Of a stretch of 64,000 nt of DNA, positions 23,175 to 44,846 are shown one piece after another. The stretch covers positions 32,079 through 96,078 of the forward strand of contig CAYOCJ010000001.1 in assembly GCA_964402565.1 (NCBI GenBank), written 5' to 3'. Source of the stretch: an uncultured Gammaproteobacteria bacterium (GTDB lineage: Bacteria; Patescibacteriota; Patescibacteriia; UBA1558; 2-01-FULL-52-15). Made by a program: the position numbers and the translations under genes. Each line of letters starts with the position of its first letter. The first letter of the stretch is position 1. Below the pieces are notes generated by a model. That model was not told the origin of the DNA and ran no database searches. It saw only the letters and a list, made by a program, of their open reading frames with translations.

Positions 23175-23274
23175 TCTTCTCGTTAACTCATTAATACCTT
23201 ACTTGGAAATTGGAGCATCTCGGCCTTTTTCTCGGTGAGGCATGTCAGCCAGCTGGCTGAAGAAAGGAAAGCCT

Positions 23275-23622
23275 ATGCTTTCAAAAGCACAGAAAGAGAA
23301 AGTAATTGAGAAGTTTCGAACCCATAAGAACGATACGGGTTCGGCAGAGGTCCAGATCGCGATCCTCACTGCAGAGATCAAGGATCTCTCGAAGCACTTG
23401 AAGGATCATAAGAAGGATTTTTCCTCACGCAGAGGCCTTATCCGCAAGGTTTCACAGCGGCGTAAATTGTTGCGTTACTTGCGAAAGGATAATGAAAAGA
23501 GCTTCACGAAACTGACGAAAGCCTTGAAGTTGAAGGCGCCGAAGCAAGGCGAGATGCCAGAGGCGATCGGCGAAGATGAATTAGCAGTACCGGAAGAAGA
23601 GAAAGTGACAGAAGAAGTATAA
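23275..23622 (+). CDS. rpsO: 30S ribosomal protein S15 with an acidic C-terminal extension of about 30 aa
   Basis: ...NDTGSAEVQIAILTAEIKDLSKHLKDHKKDFSSRRGLIRKVSQRRKLLRYL is a clear S15 signature. Confidence 0.85.
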   Translation: MLSKAQKEKVIEKFRTHKNDTGSAEVQIAILTAEIKDLSKHLKDHKKDFSSRRGLIRKVSQRRKLLRYLRKDNEKSFTKLTKALKLKAPKQGEMPEAIGEDELAVPEEEKVTEEV

Positions 23623-23676
23623 TTAGAACGAATCCCGCTTCGCGAGAGGCGGGATTAGTCGTTTATATAAGGATCT

Positions 23677-24180
23677 ATGATAGTAAAACACAAAGAACAG
23701 AGGGTCGGAGTCTTCGTGGATGTACAGAATATGTACTATTCTGCGAAGAATTTATATCAAGGCAAGGTGAATTTTGGCGCTCTTTTGACGCATGTGGTCG
23801 CCGGACGCAAATTGATACGCGCGACAGCCTACGTGATCCGCGGACCGCAATCAGAGGACGATCATTTTTTTACGGCACTTGAGAAGCAGGGCTACGAGAT
23901 CAAGGCAAAGGATCTGCAGGTATTTGCCGGCGGCACCAAAAAAGGGGACTGGGATGTAGGCATTGTCATTGATGCGATCAAGATGTCGCGTTCAGTAGAC
24001 GTGGTAGTGCTCATCTCAGGAGACGGTGACTATGTGCCGGCAGTAGAGTATTTGCAAAATCATGGTATTTTGGTGGAAGTCGCGGCATTCGGAGAGACTG
24101 CTTCGGGCACCTTGAAGGAAAAGGCAGATGATTTCATGGATATTTCTAAGCAGCCCAAAAAGTTCTTATTACATAATTAA
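23677..24180 (+). CDS. NYN/LabA-like domain protein (predicted PIN-like RNase fold, COG1432)
   Basis: RVGVFVDVQNMYYS...ATAYVI...VVLISGDGDYVPAVEYL shows the conserved acidic residues of the NYN domain. Confidence 0.6.
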   Translation: MIVKHKEQRVGVFVDVQNMYYSAKNLYQGKVNFGALLTHVVAGRKLIRATAYVIRGPQSEDDHFFTALEKQGYEIKAKDLQVFAGGTKKGDWDVGIVIDAIKMSRSVDVVVLISGDGDYVPAVEYLQNHGILVEVAAFGETASGTLKEKADDFMDISKQPKKFLLHN

Positions 24181-24340
24181 TTAAGTGCGGGCGAAACGTT
24201 TGGCATGGCTCCGGTGGTAGAGTACTTTGAGGAGCTTACAGCCTACTGCAATGACCTTTTTAGGTTTCAGTAAGCCATAAGCTACTCAAAAAACTGTATC
24301 ACCTCAGGCGAACGCATCGCTTTGCGAGAAAGATACAAGA

Positions 24341-26611
24341 ATGAAAGAAATTAAAAGGTTTGAACGCGATTTTGCTGGACGCAAACTCGTGATTGAGATC
24401 GGTAAGCTTGCAAAACAGGCTCACGGATCATGCACTGTTCGCTACGGCGATACGGTCGTTTTAGCGACAGCGGTCATTGCACCGAAAGAGCGTGACGGCG
24501 TTGATTATTTCCCCCTAATGGTCGACTATGAGGAGCGTCTTTACGCTGCAGGGAAGATCAAAGGCTCCCGCTTCATCAAGCGTGAAGGCCGTGCAACTGA
24601 TGAGGCTATTCTAACCGCACGGCTGATCGACAGAAGCATCCGGCCATTGTTCAAGGACACGGTACGAAAAGATGTGCAGGTGGTCGTGACCGTGCTTTCC
24701 ATTGATCAGGAGAATACTCCTGATTTTCCGGCTTTGATCGCAACGTCAGTAGCGCTTGGCATTTCGCCGATCCCGTGGAGCGGACCGCTCGCTGCAGTAT
24801 GCATCGGCCGTACAGATGGCCAGCTCGTAGTAAATCCAAGCTATGAGAGCCGCATGGTAAGCGATCTGGACCTGTTCGTCGCAGGAACTGCAGATGAGGT
24901 TGTCATGATCGAATCAGGAGCTCATGAGATCGCTGAAGACACGATGTTCGATGCGATCACGTTTGCGAGCAAACAGATCTCTGATGTATTGACCTTCGTG
25001 CAACAGGCCATCGACTCATGCGCAATGCCGAAAACAGTACATCCTGCATTGAGCGCGGATGAACAGAAGATACAAGATCTGGTCCAGTCGAAAGTAAAAG
25101 CATTTATAGCAACGAAGGATCTGACTAAGGTCTGGACGCATGATAAAGATACTACCAAGAGCAATACATTCGCCCTGAAAGATGAATTAGACGCTCTCCT
25201 TAAAGCAGACAATGAAGTTTCGAAAGATGCCAGAGCCAAAGGCGTTGCTCTTCTTGAGCTTGCGCTCGAAGACGCTGCCCGCGATCTGGTACTGAATACC
25301 AATAAGCGCGTTGACGGGCGGGCATTGGATGAGATTCGCGGCCTTTCGGCCGAAGTTGGGGTATTGCCGCGCACGCATGGCACTGGTCTATTCCAGCGGG
25401 GCGAAACACAGGTACTCTCGATCGTTACATTAGGCTCTCCTGGCATGGAGCAGACGCTTGATACGATGGAAGAGTCCGGCACGAAGCGCTACATGCACCA
25501 TTATAATTTCCCTCCTTTTTCGGTCGGTGAAGTAAAGCCTATGCGCGGACCATCGCGGCGAGATATCGGCCACGGTGCATTGGCAGAGAAAGCATTAGTA
25601 CCGCTGATTCCGAATAAAGAAAAATTCCCTTACACCATTCGCGTTGTTTCTGAGGTATTAGGTTCGAATGGTTCTTCATCTCAGGCTTCGGTGTGCGGAT
25701 CATCACTCGCGCTCATGGATGCAGGCGTGCCGATCAAGTCGGCATGTGCCGGGATAGCGATGGGATTGATAACGAATCCAAATGACAAAAAAGATTATCG
25801 TTTATTGACCGATATTCAGGGCATCGAAGATCATGCTGGCGATATGGATTTCAAGGTTGCCGGTACGTCACAGGGGATTACGGCGATTCAATTAGACATT
25901 AAACTCGGCGGCATTTCGCTGGAGATCTGCCAAAAAGCAATACAGCAAGCGCGCGTTGCCCGCATGCAAATTTTCAAAGTAATGGAACAGGCCATTGCAG
26001 CGCCTCGGGCAGAGCTGTCTGAGTATGCGCCGCGCATCCTTTCACTTTCCATTCCTGTCGATAAGATCCGCGAAGTTATCGGTTCGGGCGGCAAAGTAAT
26101 CAATGAGATTATTGATACCTGCGGCGTTGAGGCTATCGATATTGACGATGAAGGCTTCGTCGTCATCACCTCGCACAGCGCTGAAGGCGCCGAGAAGGCC
26201 CGCGATTGGGTCATGTCGATCGTGAAAGAAATCGAAGTGGGCGAAGTCTATGAGGGACCGGTGACCCAGATCATTGCAGACAGAAATTCTGGCGAAGAGA
26301 TCGGTGCTATCGTCGAGCTCGCGAAGGGCAAGGACGGCATGGTGCACATCTCTCAATTCCGACATGAGCGCGTCGCCCGAGTTTCAGATGTCGTGAAAAT
26401 AGGCGATATGCTGAAGGTCAAAGTGATGGAGGTTGATCCGGTTCGCGGACGCATTAGCCTGTCCGCAAAGGCATTACTGACGCCGCCGCCTTTCGATCCG
26501 AATGCTCCGCAGTATGAGGATTCGAGGCGTACGAATGGGTATCGCAATGCTCCGCGGCATCACGGCGCTACAAATAATCACGGCGGACCTCGCCGGGATT
26601 TTCGCAGATAG
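24341..26611 (+). CDS. pnp: polynucleotide phosphorylase (PNPase) with an RG-rich C-terminal tail
   Basis: Two RNase PH domains, KH (IPVDKIREVIGSGGKVINEI) and S1 domains. Classical rpsO-pnp linkage. Confidence 0.9.
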   Translation: MKEIKRFERDFAGRKLVIEIGKLAKQAHGSCTVRYGDTVVLATAVIAPKERDGVDYFPLMVDYEERLYAAGKIKGSRFIKREGRATDEAILTARLIDRSIRPLFKDTVRKDVQVVVTVLSIDQENTPDFPALIATSVALGISPIPWSGPLAAVCIGRTDGQLVVNPSYESRMVSDLDLFVAGTADEVVMIESGAHEIAEDTMFDAITFASKQISDVLTFVQQAIDSCAMPKTVHPALSADEQKIQDLVQSKVKAFIATKDLTKVWTHDKDTTKSNTFALKDELDALLKADNEVSKDARAKGVALLELALEDAARDLVLNTNKRVDGRALDEIRGLSAEVGVLPRTHGTGLFQRGETQVLSIVTLGSPGMEQTLDTMEESGTKRYMHHYNFPPFSVGEVKPMRGPSRRDIGHGALAEKALVPLIPNKEKFPYTIRVVSEVLGSNGSSSQASVCGSSLALMDAGVPIKSACAGIAMGLITNPNDKKDYRLLTDIQGIEDHAGDMDFKVAGTSQGITAIQLDIKLGGISLEICQKAIQQARVARMQIFKVMEQAIAAPRAELSEYAPRILSLSIPVDKIREVIGSGGKVINEIIDTCGVEAIDIDDEGFVVITSHSAEGAEKARDWVMSIVKEIEVGEVYEGPVTQIIADRNSGEEIGAIVELAKGKDGMVHISQFRHERVARVSDVVKIGDMLKVKVMEVDPVRGRISLSAKALLTPPPFDPNAPQYEDSRRTNGYRNAPRHHGATNNHGGPRRDFRR

Positions 26612-26636
26612 CATCTTACATACATAACTACATATC

Positions 26637-28088
26637 ATGGATCAAGCGAAGCTGAAGATCGCTTTGCGCTATGGATTGATAGGCCTGATCATTTTGGCCG
26701 CGGTTATAGGAACCGCTCTGAACGTAGCGCCGCATAAGAAACTTGCTTTGCCGGAACTTGCGCAGTATTTGCCGGCGTCTACGGTATTTGCGCTGCGGGC
26801 GGATCGGGAATCGGTTATGGGCATTTCTCATCATTCGATCTCAGATGCCGACTCATTGCGCGGCTGGCAGAATTCGTCCAGGGCTTATTGGCAGACCGTA
26901 GAACGTATTACGGGATTGCCCATGAGCACCATCATGATCGTCGTCACAGAAGATAAGGGCGTACTATGGCAAAGCGTTTTTTTCACGACAGAATCAGCCA
27001 TTAAGGATGAAGATGTCACTCGGCTTGCAGCTACGCCATTTGACGAGGCTGCCTGGTATCCGTTATCAACCGATACGCTGCATTTCCAGCGCATTGATGC
27101 GCATATCGGCGCTATCCTTTCGACGCATGACACCTTGGACTATACATCGCCATCAGCTGAAGCCGCACAATTATTGACATCTGATCCGATCGCATTATAT
27201 GTGAAGCATGATATCGGCCAGCAGATTGCGGACATGGTGGCTGCTGATACTTTGCTGCCCGGCATCAATCAACTTATTCATGAAGAAGACTCGTTGCAAT
27301 TTGGGTTATCAGTCAATGATCCAATGGTCCAGATCCATTGGTCGAATAAAAACCCGGGTTCAGCGCAGGCTATGCCATTGCGCGTACCGGAACAGGTAAC
27401 TGCAGCATTCAGCGGCGATCTGCAGCGTATCATCGACCCGACAACTCCTGAGACGCACCCATTTTCTGCGGCGGTCCAGGCTTTCGTGAACCAGCAGGCA
27501 AATGCAAATTCATTCGATCCGAAAATTTTTGAAAAAAAACTTTTCGCGGTAAAAGGAATGATCATTTTGGGCGATAACTGGCTTTTGACCGGAGATGATG
27601 GACTGCAAGTAGCTGAGCTTGTTTCGTATTTCATCGGAGCTCAGGCACCGAAGCGCGCAATTACGGCATTGCCAGACGGTACGCCGTATCGTGAGATCGT
27701 ACGCGGACTCCCCGTCCCTCAAATAGAAGAGCGCGAAGCATACAAGGCTTCAGTTTGGTCAGAAACAACCACGACGAGCACGAGCACGCCTGCTGTATCT
27801 GAACCCAGGAAACTGTATACATCAGAAAATAACGGGACGTGGTATATCAGCAATAGCCCTGAACTTCTGGACATGCAATTTTCAGACAAGCAGGGCTTGT
27901 TATTTGCTGATACCAAGACGATCACTGCTTGTATGAGTAAAAACGATGGAGATACGCTCCAGGATGAAGAGTTGTGGACGGTTTCGCTGCCGCCTGACCA
28001 AGGCTCGGATGCAAAGGGGATAACTATTAGCTCAATTTCACGAAAATCCGAGCAAAATCGTGAATTTCACGACCTGTGCATAGAATAA
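26637..28088 (+). CDS. hypothetical membrane-anchored protein (483 aa)
   Basis: Single N-terminal TM (LIGLIILAAVIGTALNV). No family recognised. Confidence 0.45.
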   Translation: MDQAKLKIALRYGLIGLIILAAVIGTALNVAPHKKLALPELAQYLPASTVFALRADRESVMGISHHSISDADSLRGWQNSSRAYWQTVERITGLPMSTIMIVVTEDKGVLWQSVFFTTESAIKDEDVTRLAATPFDEAAWYPLSTDTLHFQRIDAHIGAILSTHDTLDYTSPSAEAAQLLTSDPIALYVKHDIGQQIADMVAADTLLPGINQLIHEEDSLQFGLSVNDPMVQIHWSNKNPGSAQAMPLRVPEQVTAAFSGDLQRIIDPTTPETHPFSAAVQAFVNQQANANSFDPKIFEKKLFAVKGMIILGDNWLLTGDDGLQVAELVSYFIGAQAPKRAITALPDGTPYREIVRGLPVPQIEEREAYKASVWSETTTTSTSTPAVSEPRKLYTSENNGTWYISNSPELLDMQFSDKQGLLFADTKTITACMSKNDGDTLQDEELWTVSLPPDQGSDAKGITISSISRKSEQNREFHDLCIE

Positions 28089-28199
28089 ATTGGCTAATGT
28101 GGACAACTTGTGTGTAGCCTGAATATCTGGTGTTTCTAATTTTGGAACAGCTGTCAAGATCATTTTAGTTTTTTAGCTAATATTAGCTATATAAATGTA

Positions 28200-28228
28200 T
28201 TGACCAAGGGCGTTTTTTGTGATATACT
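28200..28228 (+). promoter_or_regulatory. near-consensus sigma70 promoter (TTGACC-N17-TATACT) not followed by any ORF
   Basis: ttgacc aagggcgttttttgtga tatact. Confidence 0.45.
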
Positions 28229-28235
28229 AGATGCA

Positions 28236-28657
28236 TAAGGATTAAAAAACCTTAGCTGATCTTAGAAAAGTTACCCTAAAGACACTTTTTGGAGTAATTT
28301 TTTTCTTTTTCACTGCCCGAATTGGGATAACCTAGCTATCCCACACAGGTAAAATAAAAATAAAATCATCAAATGGTTTATCCTCGCCTTAAAACGGAGA
28401 TACACCGATAAGAGTGGTGGAAAAGATGTAGCAAAGCTATCAGAGTTAGGAAAGGTAGCGCAATAAGTGTCGTTGTAAAATAAAATGTTATCAGCTGAAG
28501 TGCACCTGTTGAGGAGATGTGGCTACAGAAAGGTTTCTGTGACTACACCTCCTCGGCACACATTTCGGCGTAACTAGTTTACGACGACATGGGGGCCGAA
28601 GCATCCTGAAAATACATTACGTTTGAGGATCAGCATCGGCCTCTAATTTTTTTTGCT
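28236..28657 (+). ncRNA. candidate non-coding transcript (about 420 nt) bounded by the promoter and a hairpin plus U8 terminator; identity unknown
   Basis: No ORF of 60 aa or more on either strand across 28089-28786. Internal hairpins present (gggataacctagctatccc). Ends in ggccgaagcatcctgaaaatacattacgtttgaggatcagcatcggcc then ctctaatttttttt. Confidence 0.3.
28594..28657 (+). terminator. intrinsic terminator (long imperfect hairpin then TTTTTTTT)
   Basis: ggccga...tcggcc outer stem with atcctga/tgaggat inner stem, then a U8 tract. Confidence 0.45.
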
Positions 28658-28786
28658 AAAATTACGAAAAATCTTTGATGAATATATAGCTCGCGACCAA
28701 TCTCCAAAAGCCCGCATATGGGCTAGACGTAGCCTGTTTTCTGTAGTAGTATGTTTGTTAGTTATAAAACGATAATACGCATAGAT

Positions 28787-29155
28787 ATGAAGGTAGACAC
28801 AGCATTTCTCGAAGCACAAAAAAAGCTGCTTGAGGACCGCAAGGCTCAATTAATGAAAGAGTTGAAGATCGACGGCGTCAAAAATATTCATGCTGATAAT
28901 GAATATGACGCGACCTTTCCCGACTACGGTGAAAAGGAAGATGAGAATGCGGCTGAAGTCGCTGCTTTTGAAGAAAATCTGAGCATGGAAAAGAATCTGG
29001 AAGTATCTCTGTTCAATGTAAATAAAGCGTTAAAAAAAATTGCAGACGGAACCTACGGCATTTGCGAGAAGTGCGGGAAGATGATAGACCCTGCTCGCTT
29101 GAAAGCGTTTCCTTCTGCGACCGCTGACATGGATTGCAAGAAAAAGATCGGGTAG
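28787..29155 (+). CDS. DksA/TraR-family C4-type zinc-finger protein
   Basis: C-terminal GTYGICEKCGKMIDPARLKAFPSATADMDCKKK (CxxC-x17-C-x2-C pattern). Coiled-coil N-terminus. Confidence 0.6.
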   Translation: MKVDTAFLEAQKKLLEDRKAQLMKELKIDGVKNIHADNEYDATFPDYGEKEDENAAEVAAFEENLSMEKNLEVSLFNVNKALKKIADGTYGICEKCGKMIDPARLKAFPSATADMDCKKKIG

Positions 29156-29599
29156 ATGCGGAAGCAGATCATATTGCTGACAGGACTTTTCTTATTAGAT
29201 CGATTTATAAAAAACCGAATTTGGTTTTCCCCGCCTACGCCTACGGGCCAAGCGGGTTTTTTTCATGCAGTATTAAATAACAATATTGCCTTTTCTTTTC
29301 ACATTCCCGGGATCTCTGATGTTATATTAAGGCTCTCTTTGTGCATTATTGTTCTTTGTTTTATTTTTATCGTTGGACGGCTCATGATGAAGCATGATCC
29401 GAGCGCAATATGGTGGGGGTTCATAACCATAGGTGCGGTGAGTAATGTGCTTGATCGGCTGACCTTGGGCGGCGTATTGGATTATATCGATCTCAGCTAT
29501 TTCCCTATCTTTAATCTGAGCGATGTCTATATCACTATCGGCGTGATGCTACTTTTGTACAAAGAATTGCTTCAAAAAAAGAAATTCGCGACGCGTTAA
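29156..29599 (+). CDS. lspA: lipoprotein signal peptidase (signal peptidase II)
   Basis: 4 TM segments. NNIAFSF and VLDYIDLSYFPIFNLSDVYITIG match LspA conserved boxes (N-x-G-x-AF; FN-x-AD). Confidence 0.7.
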   Translation: MRKQIILLTGLFLLDRFIKNRIWFSPPTPTGQAGFFHAVLNNNIAFSFHIPGISDVILRLSLCIIVLCFIFIVGRLMMKHDPSAIWWGFITIGAVSNVLDRLTLGGVLDYIDLSYFPIFNLSDVYITIGVMLLLYKELLQKKKFATR

Positions 29600-29779
29600 A
29601 AACCAAAAACTCACCCAGGACACTAATCAATTGGGCGAGTTTCTGGCACAAAGAGCTGATCAATGAACAATGCAATTGTTTCATTTGATCTGAATTAGTA
29701 GACGCGGCACTAGCTGAGTTCTTACTCATATTCAGCCAATACGCATTTTATAGCTAACCTATGCTATACTTATGAAGCT

Positions 29780-30295
29780 ATGATCCGAGCATTTACTTCG
29801 CAATTCCAGGCTCCGTTCTGGTCTCGCATTCCTATTTTTGGCGTGCGCGTATACCCGAAAAAACCTCTGCAGAGAAAGGTATTTTGGATAAGTGCAGTTG
29901 CATATTCGATTGCCTACTTTTATGTGCTTGCAGTAGGCGTCGTGGTTTTTGTGCATTCGTTATGGGTGTGGCCGGGTTTGCAAAATGTTTTCACCACGAC
30001 GTTGTACGATATTTGTTATCGAAATTGGTGGCTGATGCTGGCCTTCGTTCTGCTCGAAGTGGGACTCATCTATGTGGCCGCAAAGAATACCAGATCAAAA
30101 ACGTTCAAAAAAAGACGCGAAACCATCGATTGGCATCGGCTATTGACTCAGCCAGTACTATTCGTAGCAGTGCTGTATCTGACGTTGAAATTGCTTTCCG
30201 GCGATTATACTGCCGAGCCGAACCTGACCCCTGTCCTGCTCTGCAGCTATGTAGTTTCCGTTGGGGGCTTGTATATAGTTGACAAGTATTCATGA
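29780..30295 (+). CDS. hypothetical integral membrane protein (4-5 TM)
   Basis: Hydrophobic 171-aa ORF. Confidence 0.4.
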   Translation: MIRAFTSQFQAPFWSRIPIFGVRVYPKKPLQRKVFWISAVAYSIAYFYVLAVGVVVFVHSLWVWPGLQNVFTTTLYDICYRNWWLMLAFVLLEVGLIYVAAKNTRSKTFKKRRETIDWHRLLTQPVLFVAVLYLTLKLLSGDYTAEPNLTPVLLCSYVVSVGGLYIVDKYS

Positions 30296-30405
30296 GCGCC
30301 GTAGTATTCATGTAGAAAAGCGATTCCCCCTCCTTGAAAAAGAGGGCAGACAACATTTGGTTTTTTTGTACATCGCTTTTCGTGATGTATTTTTTATTTA
30401 CTATT

Positions 30406-31917
30406 ATGGCATCAAAGGTTTTTTCTATCGCATTGCATGGATTGCGCTGTCAAAGCGTCGAAGTAGAGGCAGATGTCTCGCGTCACATGCCTGCATTTAT
30501 CCTGGTTGGCTTGCCAGATGCAGCGATACAGGAAGCTAAAGAACGCGTGCGCTCAGCACTTGAAAACAGCAATCTGCCGTTTCCGCGTACCAAGGTAACG
30601 GTCAATTTGGCGCCTGCGCATGTGAGAAAAGAAGGAACGCTCTATGACCTAGCGATCGCGGTGAGCATTTTGCTTGCGCAGGACTCTATCGATATGTCTG
30701 ATCAAGATCGTAATGCAGTTTTTCTGGGCGAGCTTTCGCTTGGCGGTAATGTACGTCCTGTGAAAGGCGTATTGGTAGCTGTATCGTTTCTGAGAGAGCA
30801 AGGCGTGAAGCGCGTCTATGTGCCGAGCGCCAATGCAAAAGAAGCATCGTATATTTCTGGTATTGAGATCATTCCGGTTACCACCCTGCGGCAATTGCTG
30901 AACCATTTGAACGGCTTTGAACCCATACAGCCGACAAAGCATATGTCAGTGCCGGCAGGAAAAATGAAATTTGGCACGTATGATTTTGCAGATATCAGCG
31001 GGCAATCAATTGCGAAGCGGGCTCTGGAGATCGCTGCTGCAGGCGGGCATAATGTGCTGTTGAACGGTATACCTGGCAGCGGGAAAACCATGCTGGCACG
31101 GAGCTTCATGTCGATCTTGCCGCCGCTCGTTGAAGATGAAATGCTTGAAGTTTCGAAAATATATAGCTATGCAGGCCTGCTTGCCAGCGGAGATTCGCTG
31201 ATCTATGAACGGCCGTTTCGTTCGCCGCACCATTCAGCATCGGTTGCCTCGATCGTCGGCGGCGGCACCTGGCCAAAGCCCGGCGAGATTACGCTTGCGC
31301 ATAGGGGAGTATTATTCATGGACGAGTTCCCTGAGTTTCCGCGCAATGTGCTTGAATCGCTCCGTCAGCCGCTGGAAGACAAGATCATTTCTGTCAGCAG
31401 GGTTTCAGGCAGTTTGCAGTTCCCTGCGCATTTTATTTTGATAGCAGCTCAAAATCCGTGTCCGTGCGGCGCATGGGGAGATGCAGAGAAAGAATGCGTG
31501 TGCAGTGATTTCCAAAGGAAAAATTATCAAAGAAAAATCTCAGGCCCTTTGCTGGACCGCATCGACCTGTACGTTCGCGTCTATCCGGCTGATCGCCAGA
31601 AATTGCTCATCGAGAATAAAGCTGAAAGCTCGGCCAGTATTTTGAGCCGAGTCGTCAAAGCAAGAAAGCGGCAACATACACGCTTCACATCGCCAATACT
31701 CCTGAACGGACATATGGATCATACATTGCTAAAAAAAGTTTGCATCCTCGATGCTGCTACCGAGAAAGTGCTCCTGCAGGCGTCAAAGAAATTGCAATTA
31801 TCTGCCAGGTCATTTTATAAAACGATCAAGATCGCGCGCACGATAGCTGACCTTGCTGAGCGAAAGGCTATTGATGAGGCAGATGTGCTCGAAGCGTTGC
31901 GGTATCGGCCGACCTAA
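30406..31917 (+). CDS. YifB/ComM-family Mg-chelatase-like AAA+ ATPase
   Basis: N-terminal Lon-like domain (VFSIALHGLRCQSVEVEADVS...), Walker A GIPGSGKT, C-terminal ChlI-like region. Confidence 0.8.
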   Translation: MASKVFSIALHGLRCQSVEVEADVSRHMPAFILVGLPDAAIQEAKERVRSALENSNLPFPRTKVTVNLAPAHVRKEGTLYDLAIAVSILLAQDSIDMSDQDRNAVFLGELSLGGNVRPVKGVLVAVSFLREQGVKRVYVPSANAKEASYISGIEIIPVTTLRQLLNHLNGFEPIQPTKHMSVPAGKMKFGTYDFADISGQSIAKRALEIAAAGGHNVLLNGIPGSGKTMLARSFMSILPPLVEDEMLEVSKIYSYAGLLASGDSLIYERPFRSPHHSASVASIVGGGTWPKPGEITLAHRGVLFMDEFPEFPRNVLESLRQPLEDKIISVSRVSGSLQFPAHFILIAAQNPCPCGAWGDAEKECVCSDFQRKNYQRKISGPLLDRIDLYVRVYPADRQKLLIENKAESSASILSRVVKARKRQHTRFTSPILLNGHMDHTLLKKVCILDAATEKVLLQASKKLQLSARSFYKTIKIARTIADLAERKAIDEADVLEALRYRPT

Positions 31918-40457: not shown

Positions 40458-41057
40458 TTAAGATGAAGATTTTCTTCCCATTCTAAACTCAAATTCTTTT
40501 ACAAAAACAGGAATATAATTTTTTACTTCTTGCCCATATGCGTCATAAGCAATCTTTCCAAAACGTTTTGTTTTCCATTCAGCATAATAGTTATCGATAT
40601 GTTCAGGCGGGACATTAGCTAAATAGACCTCATCATCCATAAGCTCTGGATGATTTTTTTTATCTTTTATTAAATCTTCAAAGTAATCATGATCAGGGTC
40701 AAAATCATCAATATCCCCATAATCCTCATGGTCATCGTACCCATGACCACCTGTTTTTAATTTCTTGTCTAATTGACGCGACATCCAATATATTTGTTGG
40801 TGTAACAATTTTTCGTCTTCATTCAATGTGTATTTCCCGTGAGTGATCGCATATTCTTCCTCTTGGGTTAAAACAGGATGCAAAATAAGAGCATCGCCTA
40901 TAGCACGCAGCTCCTCTTGTTTCATACGAATGGATTCCTGTAATACGGTGTCGTCAGGATTACTCTTTACTTGCTCGACCAATGCTTTATATTCCTCGAA
41001 TAGGGCATCAATTTTATTTCGCTCAGGGCTTTCTTCGTGGGGTCGTTCGTACCTCAT
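40458..41057 (-). CDS. hypothetical acidic protein (199 aa) inserted between infB and rbfA
   Basis: Low GC, Asp/Glu/His-rich (GHGYDDHEDYGDIDDFDPDHDYFED). No family recognised. Confidence 0.45.
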   Translation of the reverse strand: MRYERPHEESPERNKIDALFEEYKALVEQVKSNPDDTVLQESIRMKQEELRAIGDALILHPVLTQEEEYAITHGKYTLNEDEKLLHQQIYWMSRQLDKKLKTGGHGYDDHEDYGDIDDFDPDHDYFEDLIKDKKNHPELMDDEVYLANVPPEHIDNYYAEWKTKRFGKIAYDAYGQEVKNYIPVFVKEFEFRMGRKSSS

Positions 41058-44769: not shown

Positions 44770-44846
44770 GCGCCTGTAGCTCAATTGGTTAGAGCATTCG
44801 GCTTATATCCGAACGGTTCCTGGTTCGAGTCCAGGCAGGCGCACCA
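44770..44846 (+). tRNA. tRNA-Ile with anticodon TAT (UAU), encoded CCA
   Basis: GCGCCTG TA GCTC AATTGGTTA GAGC A TTCGG CTTATAT CCGAA CGGTT CCTGG TTCGAGT CCAGG CAGGCGC A CCA. Cloverleaf is canonical. Confidence 0.8.

Follow-up and report, generated by a model that had tools for sequence, protein, structure and literature searches.

Large, ornate RNA classes that have been kept across bacterial lineages are rare, and those that are known belong either to core machinery (RNase P, tmRNA, SRP and 6S) or to a set of long-standing puzzles (OLE, raiA, ROOL and GOLLD). In cobalamin riboswitches a multi-way junction is docked by a peripheral hairpin through loop-loop pairing. DnaA-regulated promoters and clusters of DnaA boxes are found outside oriC as well, as with sda and the box clusters of Bacillus subtilis and with datA and DARS in Escherichia coli. 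The raiA motif RNA (PMC10861870) and OLE (PMC3413148) are described as orphan large structured bacterial ncRNAs, and Ms1 is reported to reach about 300 nt (PMC9130861).

Here we report that an intergenic region within a 64,000-nucleotide stretch of DNA (hereafter the window) very probably holds a new conserved structured ncRNA gene. The best explanation for our observations, and on balance a probable one, is a free-standing structured RNA gene of about 380-420 nt that is present in several lineages of Patescibacteria (CPR), acts in trans and is controlled by DnaA. An earlier sequence-only reading of the window had noticed the transcription unit; the present analysis places it among its relatives, tests it against described RNA families and derives a fold for it.

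Predicted extent of the RNA gene and its neighbours

The sequence-only reading proposed a near-consensus promoter, TTGACC-N17-TATACT, at positions 28200-28228, and our scan agrees: on the + strand the site scores 10/12 as a sigma70-type promoter and carries in addition the TG of an extended -10 element (TG-n-TATACT). Only two promoter-like sites, this one included, occur between 26500 and 30500, against 8.3 in shuffled sequence. The site is also supported by conservation, TTGAC and TGATATAMT being at least 85% conserved in nhmmer and MAFFT alignments of the loci. Taking the start from the -10 hexamer and the end from a run of eight T residues, the predicted transcript covers 28235-28654 of the + strand (about 420 nt); across the family, the median length from predicted start to T-run is 376 nt.

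The 3' end had been placed at 28594-28657, which is essentially right: sequence and folding give a long hairpin at 28591-28644, here named P6, followed by TTTTTTTT at 28647-28654, so that the predicted terminator as a whole spans 28591-28654. This hairpin was absent from the output of our terminator scan because its loop exceeds the 8-nt limit of the tool. A terminator-like hairpin with a T-run lies between the RNA core and dksA in 68 of 73 loci, and the outer stem of P6 (GGCGCA/UGCGCC) covaries. The gap of about 130 nt that had been given between the unit and the dksA-like gene measures 132 nt, counted from the T-run to the ATG at 28787 that is common to the relatives. An own promoter and an own intrinsic terminator, both conserved, are the marks of an independent sigma70-transcribed RNA gene; with its ends predicted from sequence and conservation, the unit is a separately promoted and terminated RNA gene.

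The gene lies in a syntenic block (window positions 23242-31917) with the order S15, NYN nuclease, PNPase, hypothetical gene, RNA, DksA/YteA-like gene, LspA, (hypothetical gene) and ComM-like Mg-chelatase ATPase. Its invariable downstream neighbour, distinct from the RNA itself, is the DksA/YteA-like C4 zinc-finger gene at 28787-29155 on the + strand, and the pairing of this gene with LspA mirrors the ylyA-lspA pair of Bacillus. Since the whole block is syntenic, adjacency to dksA carries little weight for or against a functional link.

Between PNPase and the RNA, the gene at 26637-28088 encodes a variable, membrane-anchored protein of 483 aa with an N-terminal hydrophobic helix. Considered as a candidate partner of the RNA, it was set aside: it has no Pfam or NCBIfam domain, and homology searches among 5.8 billion proteins returned only the protein itself and one relative. 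A gene of about this size occupies the same position in most loci, and the protein evolves fast (44% identity, against 90% for PNPase).

Conservation and distribution

The unit had been called an orphan. In the evolutionary sense this is wrong, as it is conserved in more than 90 loci. The DksA of the window has relatives with names such as Candidatus Komeilibacteria, which point to a Patescibacteria (CPR) bacterium as the source. Eighty loci were fetched via an alignment of DksA homologues, and iterative nhmmer placed the element 5' of dksA, in the orientation of that gene, in 71 of the 81 sources. A covariance model of a 158-position core of the RNA, R1, finds it in 73 of the 81 loci, with one copy in each and invariably on the strand of dksA; in the 64-kb window it gives a single match, at 28301-28460. 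Records positive for R1 are named as Komeili-, Nomura-, Falkow- and Uhrbacteria, several "Parcubacteria group" bins and unclassified Patescibacteria. Within the DksA-fetched set, R1 had no match in the single Saccharibacteria locus and in two Magasanikbacteria loci.

One relative (L004, GCA_964422585.1), a second species, has the same gene order as the window and allows the RNA to be compared with its surroundings. Over the first 300 nt of the RNA the two agree at about 93% of positions and share a block of 64 identical nt. Identity is 77% for the DNA of the PNPase genes and 44% for the protein encoded between PNPase and the RNA. The RNA is more strongly conserved than the genes around it.

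A sample anchored on DksA is biased towards dksA, and metagenome contigs were therefore searched with a DNA pattern derived from the RNA. This pattern recovers only about 40% of known members, and about 100 of the 120 matches listed were A-rich false positives. The full element, found by the pattern and confirmed by R1, is nevertheless present in at least about 22 metagenome contigs. Among the matches listed, a DksA homologue lies downstream on the same strand in all 18 contigs with at least 500 nt of downstream room; it is within 450 nt in 17 of these 18 RNA-anchored contigs and 1.8 kb away in one. Pattern matches also arose in viral contigs, none of which was confirmed by the covariance model.

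Several irregularities were seen along the way. One locus (L049, about 2440-2960) has a small ORF as well as a duplication of about 60 nt between RNA and dksA, and another (L141, 7560-9330) has about 1.8 kb of extra sequence there, so the adjacency of RNA and dksA can be interrupted. Logan metagenome contigs from both related species break inside the RNA, three at their 3' ends (L001, L002 and L005) and one at its 5' end (L003), at the equivalent of window positions 28287-28292 or thereabouts, inside the 64-nt block common to both species. These breaks probably reflect a branch in the assembly graph, because the two species co-occur in samples and share identical sequence.

Fold of the RNA and its covariation

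Internal hairpins had been noted in the transcribed stretch. Its + strand has a predicted folding energy of -140.5 kcal/mol, far better than that of shuffles (z = -9.4), as compared with z = -4.4 for the - strand of the same stretch. The helices first became visible in structure-blind MAFFT alignments. Covariation analysis, a check that the sequence-only reading had suggested, revealed base pairs kept by compensatory changes at levels above controls. In the structure-blind alignment, pairing is kept in 91.1% of pair cells, compared with 69.9% after shuffling (none of 500 reached the observed value) and 37-45% when partners are slid, and 23 of 25 pairs have changed on both sides. The corresponding values for the model-fitted alignment of 73 sequences are 88.7% of cells paired, against 66.1% in shuffles, with both sides changed in 38 of 40 pairs. 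Conserved G-U pairs are frequent and position-specific in the 73-sequence alignment, which identifies the + strand as the folded one.

From the 5' end, the first general element is P1 (28264-28304, + strand), a hairpin of 41 nt directly adjoining P2. In 55 loci the same place has a hairpin of 31-44 nt, and nearly all have a P1 hairpin of about 40 nt; compensatory changes affect 9 of its 10 RNAalifold pairs. There follows a three-way-junction domain (28305-28425), delimited by covariation and closed by P2, a 14-bp long-range helix joining 28305-28318 with 28412-28425 that is 90-94% paired and has changed on both sides in 13 of 14 pairs. Within the junction lie the hairpin Pc (28324-28342; 6/6 pairs changed on both sides), whose loop, ACCUAGC in the window (28330-28336), is a conserved 7-nt nCCUGAC in the family, and the hairpin P3/Pe (28375-28406), with AUCCUC/GGAGAU pairing and a conserved C-A mismatch. 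The two are separated by a near-invariant, single-stranded A-rich motif, AAAAUAAAAAUAAAA at 28351-28365 in the window and AAAACAAAAACAAAA in consensus; this is the core of an A-rich strand of about 30 nt, and its columns are invariant or more than 90% conserved in the MAFFT alignments.

On the 3' side of P2, covariation supports the hairpin Pf (28436-28459), the loop of which, GUUAGG at 28445-28450 in the window and GAGUCAGG in the family, pairs with CCUAGC (28331-28336) in the Pc loop as a 6-bp kissing-loop pseudoknot. This pairing is 98.6% kept in the structure-blind alignment, with 4 of 5 pairs changed on both sides, and 92.7% kept in the model-fitted alignment of 73 sequences, with 6 of 6 so changed. 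Single positions illustrate the exchange (UA in 50 sequences and CG in 16; GC in 50 and AU in 17), and the two loops change together as CCUAGC/GUUAGG (window), CCGAC/GUCGG, CCAAC/GUUGG, UCUAAC/GUUAGA and CUCAGC/GCUGAG. Covariation of this kind shows a conserved tertiary fold.

The remainder, up to the T-run, consists of exactly two domains, P5 and P6, in 63 of 71 loci. P5 (28467-28590), predicted by folding, is a long hairpin of irregular pairing; its tip varies, whereas an internal loop (CAAAAUCUUG in the family) is conserved.

The extreme 5' end differs between lineages. A Komeilibacteria-like subgroup, to which the window copy belongs, has a small extra hairpin, AAGGAUUAAAAAACCUU at 28237-28253, with compensatory changes (L004, L007, L009 and L010); other lineages have a conserved 5' leader, GUUGAUAAAUAAG, instead.

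Separate gene or leader of dksA

The sequence-only reading had offered two interpretations, an independent non-coding RNA and a long regulatory leader. The first is supported by the RNA's own promoter and terminator, by a promoter further downstream for dksA, by the strong covariation and by the lack of a conserved ORF; the second is disfavoured, and we regard it as improbable, although of the competing explanations it survives best. It would make the RNA a cis-acting, riboswitch-like leader or attenuator, in which the fold senses a ligand or protein and gates read-through of P6 into dksA-lspA. Much about the layout invites this interpretation. The RNA is encoded on the dksA strand, the distance from its start to the dksA ATG is about 390-580 nt in nearly all loci, and dksA lies downstream in 18/18 RNA-anchored contigs with room for it among the matches listed. 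A junction with a kissing loop, followed by a terminator, is moreover a typical aptamer-plus-platform design.

What lies between the terminator and dksA points to a separate gene. In the window this is a promoter-like site, TAGACG-N17-TAGTAT at 28724-28752 on the + strand, which is weak, a point in favour of a leader, and is conserved in L004. Across the family, a dksA promoter of the form CTTGAtt-N-TGCTAAtAT is found 3' of the terminator in a large subgroup, its strict extended -10 form in 29/73 loci; the remaining lineages inspected have other canonical forms, such sigma70-like sites before dksA being recognized by eye in L061, L085, L075, L072 and L079. Given a sigma70-type dksA promoter after the terminator, the RNA is most simply a separate gene and not a leader. 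A non-systematic look noticed no conserved anti-terminator pairing; in some sequences the hairpin of P6 can be a long one or, alternatively, a short one. The large P5 hairpin intervenes between the conserved core and the terminator, which does not suit a leader, and the genes on both sides of the RNA are equally syntenic. Read-through from the separate RNA gene could nevertheless contribute to the expression of dksA.

A short terminator-like hairpin, GGGCUAGACGUAGCC, followed by UUUUCU, was also seen at 28718-28737 in the window, where it overlaps the putative -35 region of dksA; it is not conserved in L004.

The upstream region and replication

Alignment of the region from -175 to +3 in 71 loci brought out a conserved DnaA box. 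A perfect TGTGGATAA, the complement of TTATCCACA, is present in 62/71 loci, and seven more, the window included, have it with one mismatch; the box starts at -136 to -134 in 52 loci. All 477 kb of the loci together contain only 73 perfect boxes. The predicted box of the window, TGTGGACAA at 28098-28106, lies about 135 bp 5' of the RNA start and 10 nt beyond the upstream gene's stop codon. Often there are further, weaker boxes spaced at 11 bp, and 23/71 loci have a one-mismatch box over the start site. A consensus DnaA box in the promoter region is, at the level of sequence, the signature of a DnaA regulon member.

The second conserved element is palindromic. Directly 5' of the -35 hexamer, the window has a perfect 16-bp palindrome, TAGCTAATATTAGCTA at 28175-28190, with the 12-bp family core GCTAAnnTTAGC; near -60, the form nCTWA-N2-4-TWAGY occurs in 50/71 loci, and a T-run is conserved along with the palindrome in the upstream alignment. 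The palindrome is probably an operator for a dimeric regulator. The simplest reading of the upstream region would be that DnaA and this second regulator control the RNA promoter. A further palindrome, TTGACAA-N2-TTGTCAA, was observed near -100 in a subset of loci (for example L041, L038 and L047).

Boxes of this kind could instead work at the DNA level, the locus being a replication-linked DnaA-site cluster (oriC-, datA- or DARS-like) for which strong transcription alongside is what counts, and its transcript a by-product, an R-loop or a primer-type RNA. We consider this quite unlikely, despite an AT-rich spacer and despite a box that is conserved, fixed in position and often accompanied by weaker 11-bp-spaced boxes, including one over the start site. 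The 64-kb window has 9 DnaA-box matches where 11.7 are expected; boxes are not clustered at the locus, which has just one, with one mismatch. GC skew keeps its positive sign across the locus, and neither dnaA nor dnaN is among the 10 large window ORFs scanned; with no box cluster, no change of skew and neither gene in the scanned ORFs, the locus is not the origin, and we reject oriC for this genome. Beyond this, compensatory changes that include G-U pairs, together with the pseudoknot, argue for selection on a folded RNA and against a replication element.

Known RNA families and coding potential

The sequence-only reading could not match the unit to the hallmarks of RNase P RNA, tmRNA or SRP RNA and had proposed an Rfam scan. 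Rfam 15 (4227 models, among them RNase P, tmRNA, SRP, 6S, OLE, raiA, ROOL, GOLLD and riboswitches) has no match at the locus at gathering thresholds, and in the whole window reports three tRNAs only; 20 related loci were likewise without a match at the RNA at these thresholds. With permissive filters and E<=10, scattered chance matches appear at the locus, no family recurring across 14 related loci. Rfam and ARAGORN thus confirm that the unit is not one of the universal RNAs already known. We also searched for a description of the RNA in the literature, the coverage of which was incomplete, and found none. Having failed the tests for known families and lacking a literature description, the RNA is rated as a new class. 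Its newness is at the level of family or class, in the sense of being outside Rfam, and its mechanism could still prove familiar.

It is very unlikely, more so than a replication element, that the RNA is a universal one (RNase P RNA, tmRNA, SRP RNA or 6S/Ms1) so far diverged in CPR that standard models miss it. There is precedent for such divergence: CPR RNase P RNAs are reported to be diverged and to need lowered thresholds, RF00010 finding them at low score (PMC8172020). The size, strong promoter and broad conservation of the present RNA do resemble those of housekeeping RNAs, and the 64-kb window has no such universal RNA at another site, so that none is excluded by duplication. Against this stands the lack of any such family at E<=10, either in the window region or in the 14 relatives, and a fold that is wrong for each: it lacks a 5'/3' closing stem, a P4-type pseudoknot with GGAAAGUCC, a tRNA-like end, an SRP helix 8 with its GNRA cap, and the rod of 6S type that opens into a central bubble.

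Individual candidates were rejected as follows. For tmRNA, ARAGORN finds four tRNAs and no tmRNA in the window. Bacterial RNase P RNA, the marks of which are a P1 closing stem and a long-range P4 pseudoknot with conserved GGAAAGUCC and ACAGAA-type regions, has no RF00010 or RF00011 match at E<=10, and the fold is without its closing stem. 6S and Ms1 would require a rod paired between the 5' and 3' ends, and the domains here (P1, the P2 junction, Pf, P5 and P6) are local. A repeat or mobile element was dismissed since self-BLAST of the intergenic region against the window finds only itself. A TnpB/IscB omega RNA is at odds with a single copy in the window, a fixed syntenic position, an upstream 483-aa protein without a Pfam or NCBIfam domain and no copies found in viral contigs. 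When an antisense target of the A-rich strand was sought within the window, the matches were the RNA itself and one weak site at 40651. As a separate observation, a tRNA-Ile with anticodon TAT, which is uncommon in bacteria, lies at 44770-44846.

The transcribed stretch had been described as free of ORFs of 60 aa or more, and it contains only ORFs of 30-37 aa on either strand. Among the relatives no ORF conserved in frame or length was found in the RNA stretch, short ORFs varying in frame, start, stop and length, and a search among them for a conserved small protein, which the sequence-only reading had raised as a counter-possibility, found none. That the 30-37 aa ORFs of the window copy mark a small-protein gene or a dual-function RNA is scarcely credible, for ORF similarity across relatives merely reflects nucleotide conservation, and substitutions are pairwise-compensatory and not three-periodic.

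Proposed role of the RNA

We propose that transcription of the RNA would start at a near-consensus extended -10 promoter and end at an intrinsic terminator, both belonging to the RNA alone, and that the junction and kissing loop would form a rigid scaffold displaying the unpaired, almost invariant AAAACAAAAACAAAA strand along with a small number of invariant nucleotides in loops; the loop motifs of P5 and of P6, CCAnAAA in the latter, may be presented to a partner as well. Thus displayed, the RNA would bind a protein or another RNA in trans, as a housekeeping or regulatory ribonucleoprotein RNA and not as a dksA leader. We infer this trans-acting mode from the invariance of the unpaired nucleotides and from analogy, and would give a trans-acting, protein-binding mode an even chance or slightly better.

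Synthesis would be controlled by DnaA through the box at -135 and often through a second box over the start site, and also by a dimeric regulator at the palindrome beside the -35 hexamer. The level of the RNA would thereby be tied to replication or growth status. A housekeeping or regulatory RNA under DnaA control is our best guess from these sequence features. Candidate partners, suggested by the neighbourhood alone, might be the DksA-like RNA-polymerase factor, PNPase and the NYN nuclease.

More tentatively, and in our view less probably than not by some way, the RNA may represent a Patescibacteria-specific class of housekeeping RNP RNA or ribozyme, wired to DnaA and acting on the neighbouring machinery of transcription and RNA turnover (DksA-like factor, PNPase and NYN nuclease). 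If so, it would be a CPR-specific functional counterpart of the 6S-type global regulators, or would have a wholly new activity. Patescibacteria have tiny genomes with little dispensable sequence, so that a 380-nt RNA which several classes keep together with its promoter, DnaA box and regulator site probably matters to their biology. The covariance model, the pseudoknotted secondary structure and the precise coordinates of promoter and terminator obtained here enable direct testing of the RNA.

Comparison with known systems

The Patescibacteria RNA most resembles raiA, OLE, ROOL and GOLLD. Like them, it is encoded by a gene that stands alone between a promoter and a terminator of its own, folds over several hundred nucleotides into many helices with long-range tertiary pairing, is conserved across a large clade and takes its name from a neighbour gene. 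It matches none of their Rfam models, however, and is distinguished by its occurrence in Patescibacteria, by an architecture of three-way junction, A-rich strand and single kissing loop, and by its upstream DnaA box.

With 6S and Ms1 it shares the character of a strongly promoted housekeeping-type ncRNA, and its position next to the gene for a DksA-like RNA-polymerase secondary-channel factor suggests a transcription-related role. Yet the rods of 6S and Ms1 are closed by pairing of their 5' and 3' ends and open into a central bubble, whereas in the present RNA local domains follow one another, with a three-way junction and a pseudoknot, without a closing stem and without an Rfam 6S match. Kissing-loop riboswitches of the cobalamin type likewise have a docked junction followed by an intrinsic terminator 5' of a same-strand gene; the present RNA differs in being much larger, in the separate downstream promoter, in that no anti-terminator was noticed and in having no Rfam riboswitch match.

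The upstream region, finally, recalls sda and datA/DARS, where one or more consensus DnaA boxes likewise lie in intergenic DNA away from the origin and 5' of a promoter. Here the product is instead a structured ncRNA, and the distance between box and promoter is conserved across whole bacterial classes.
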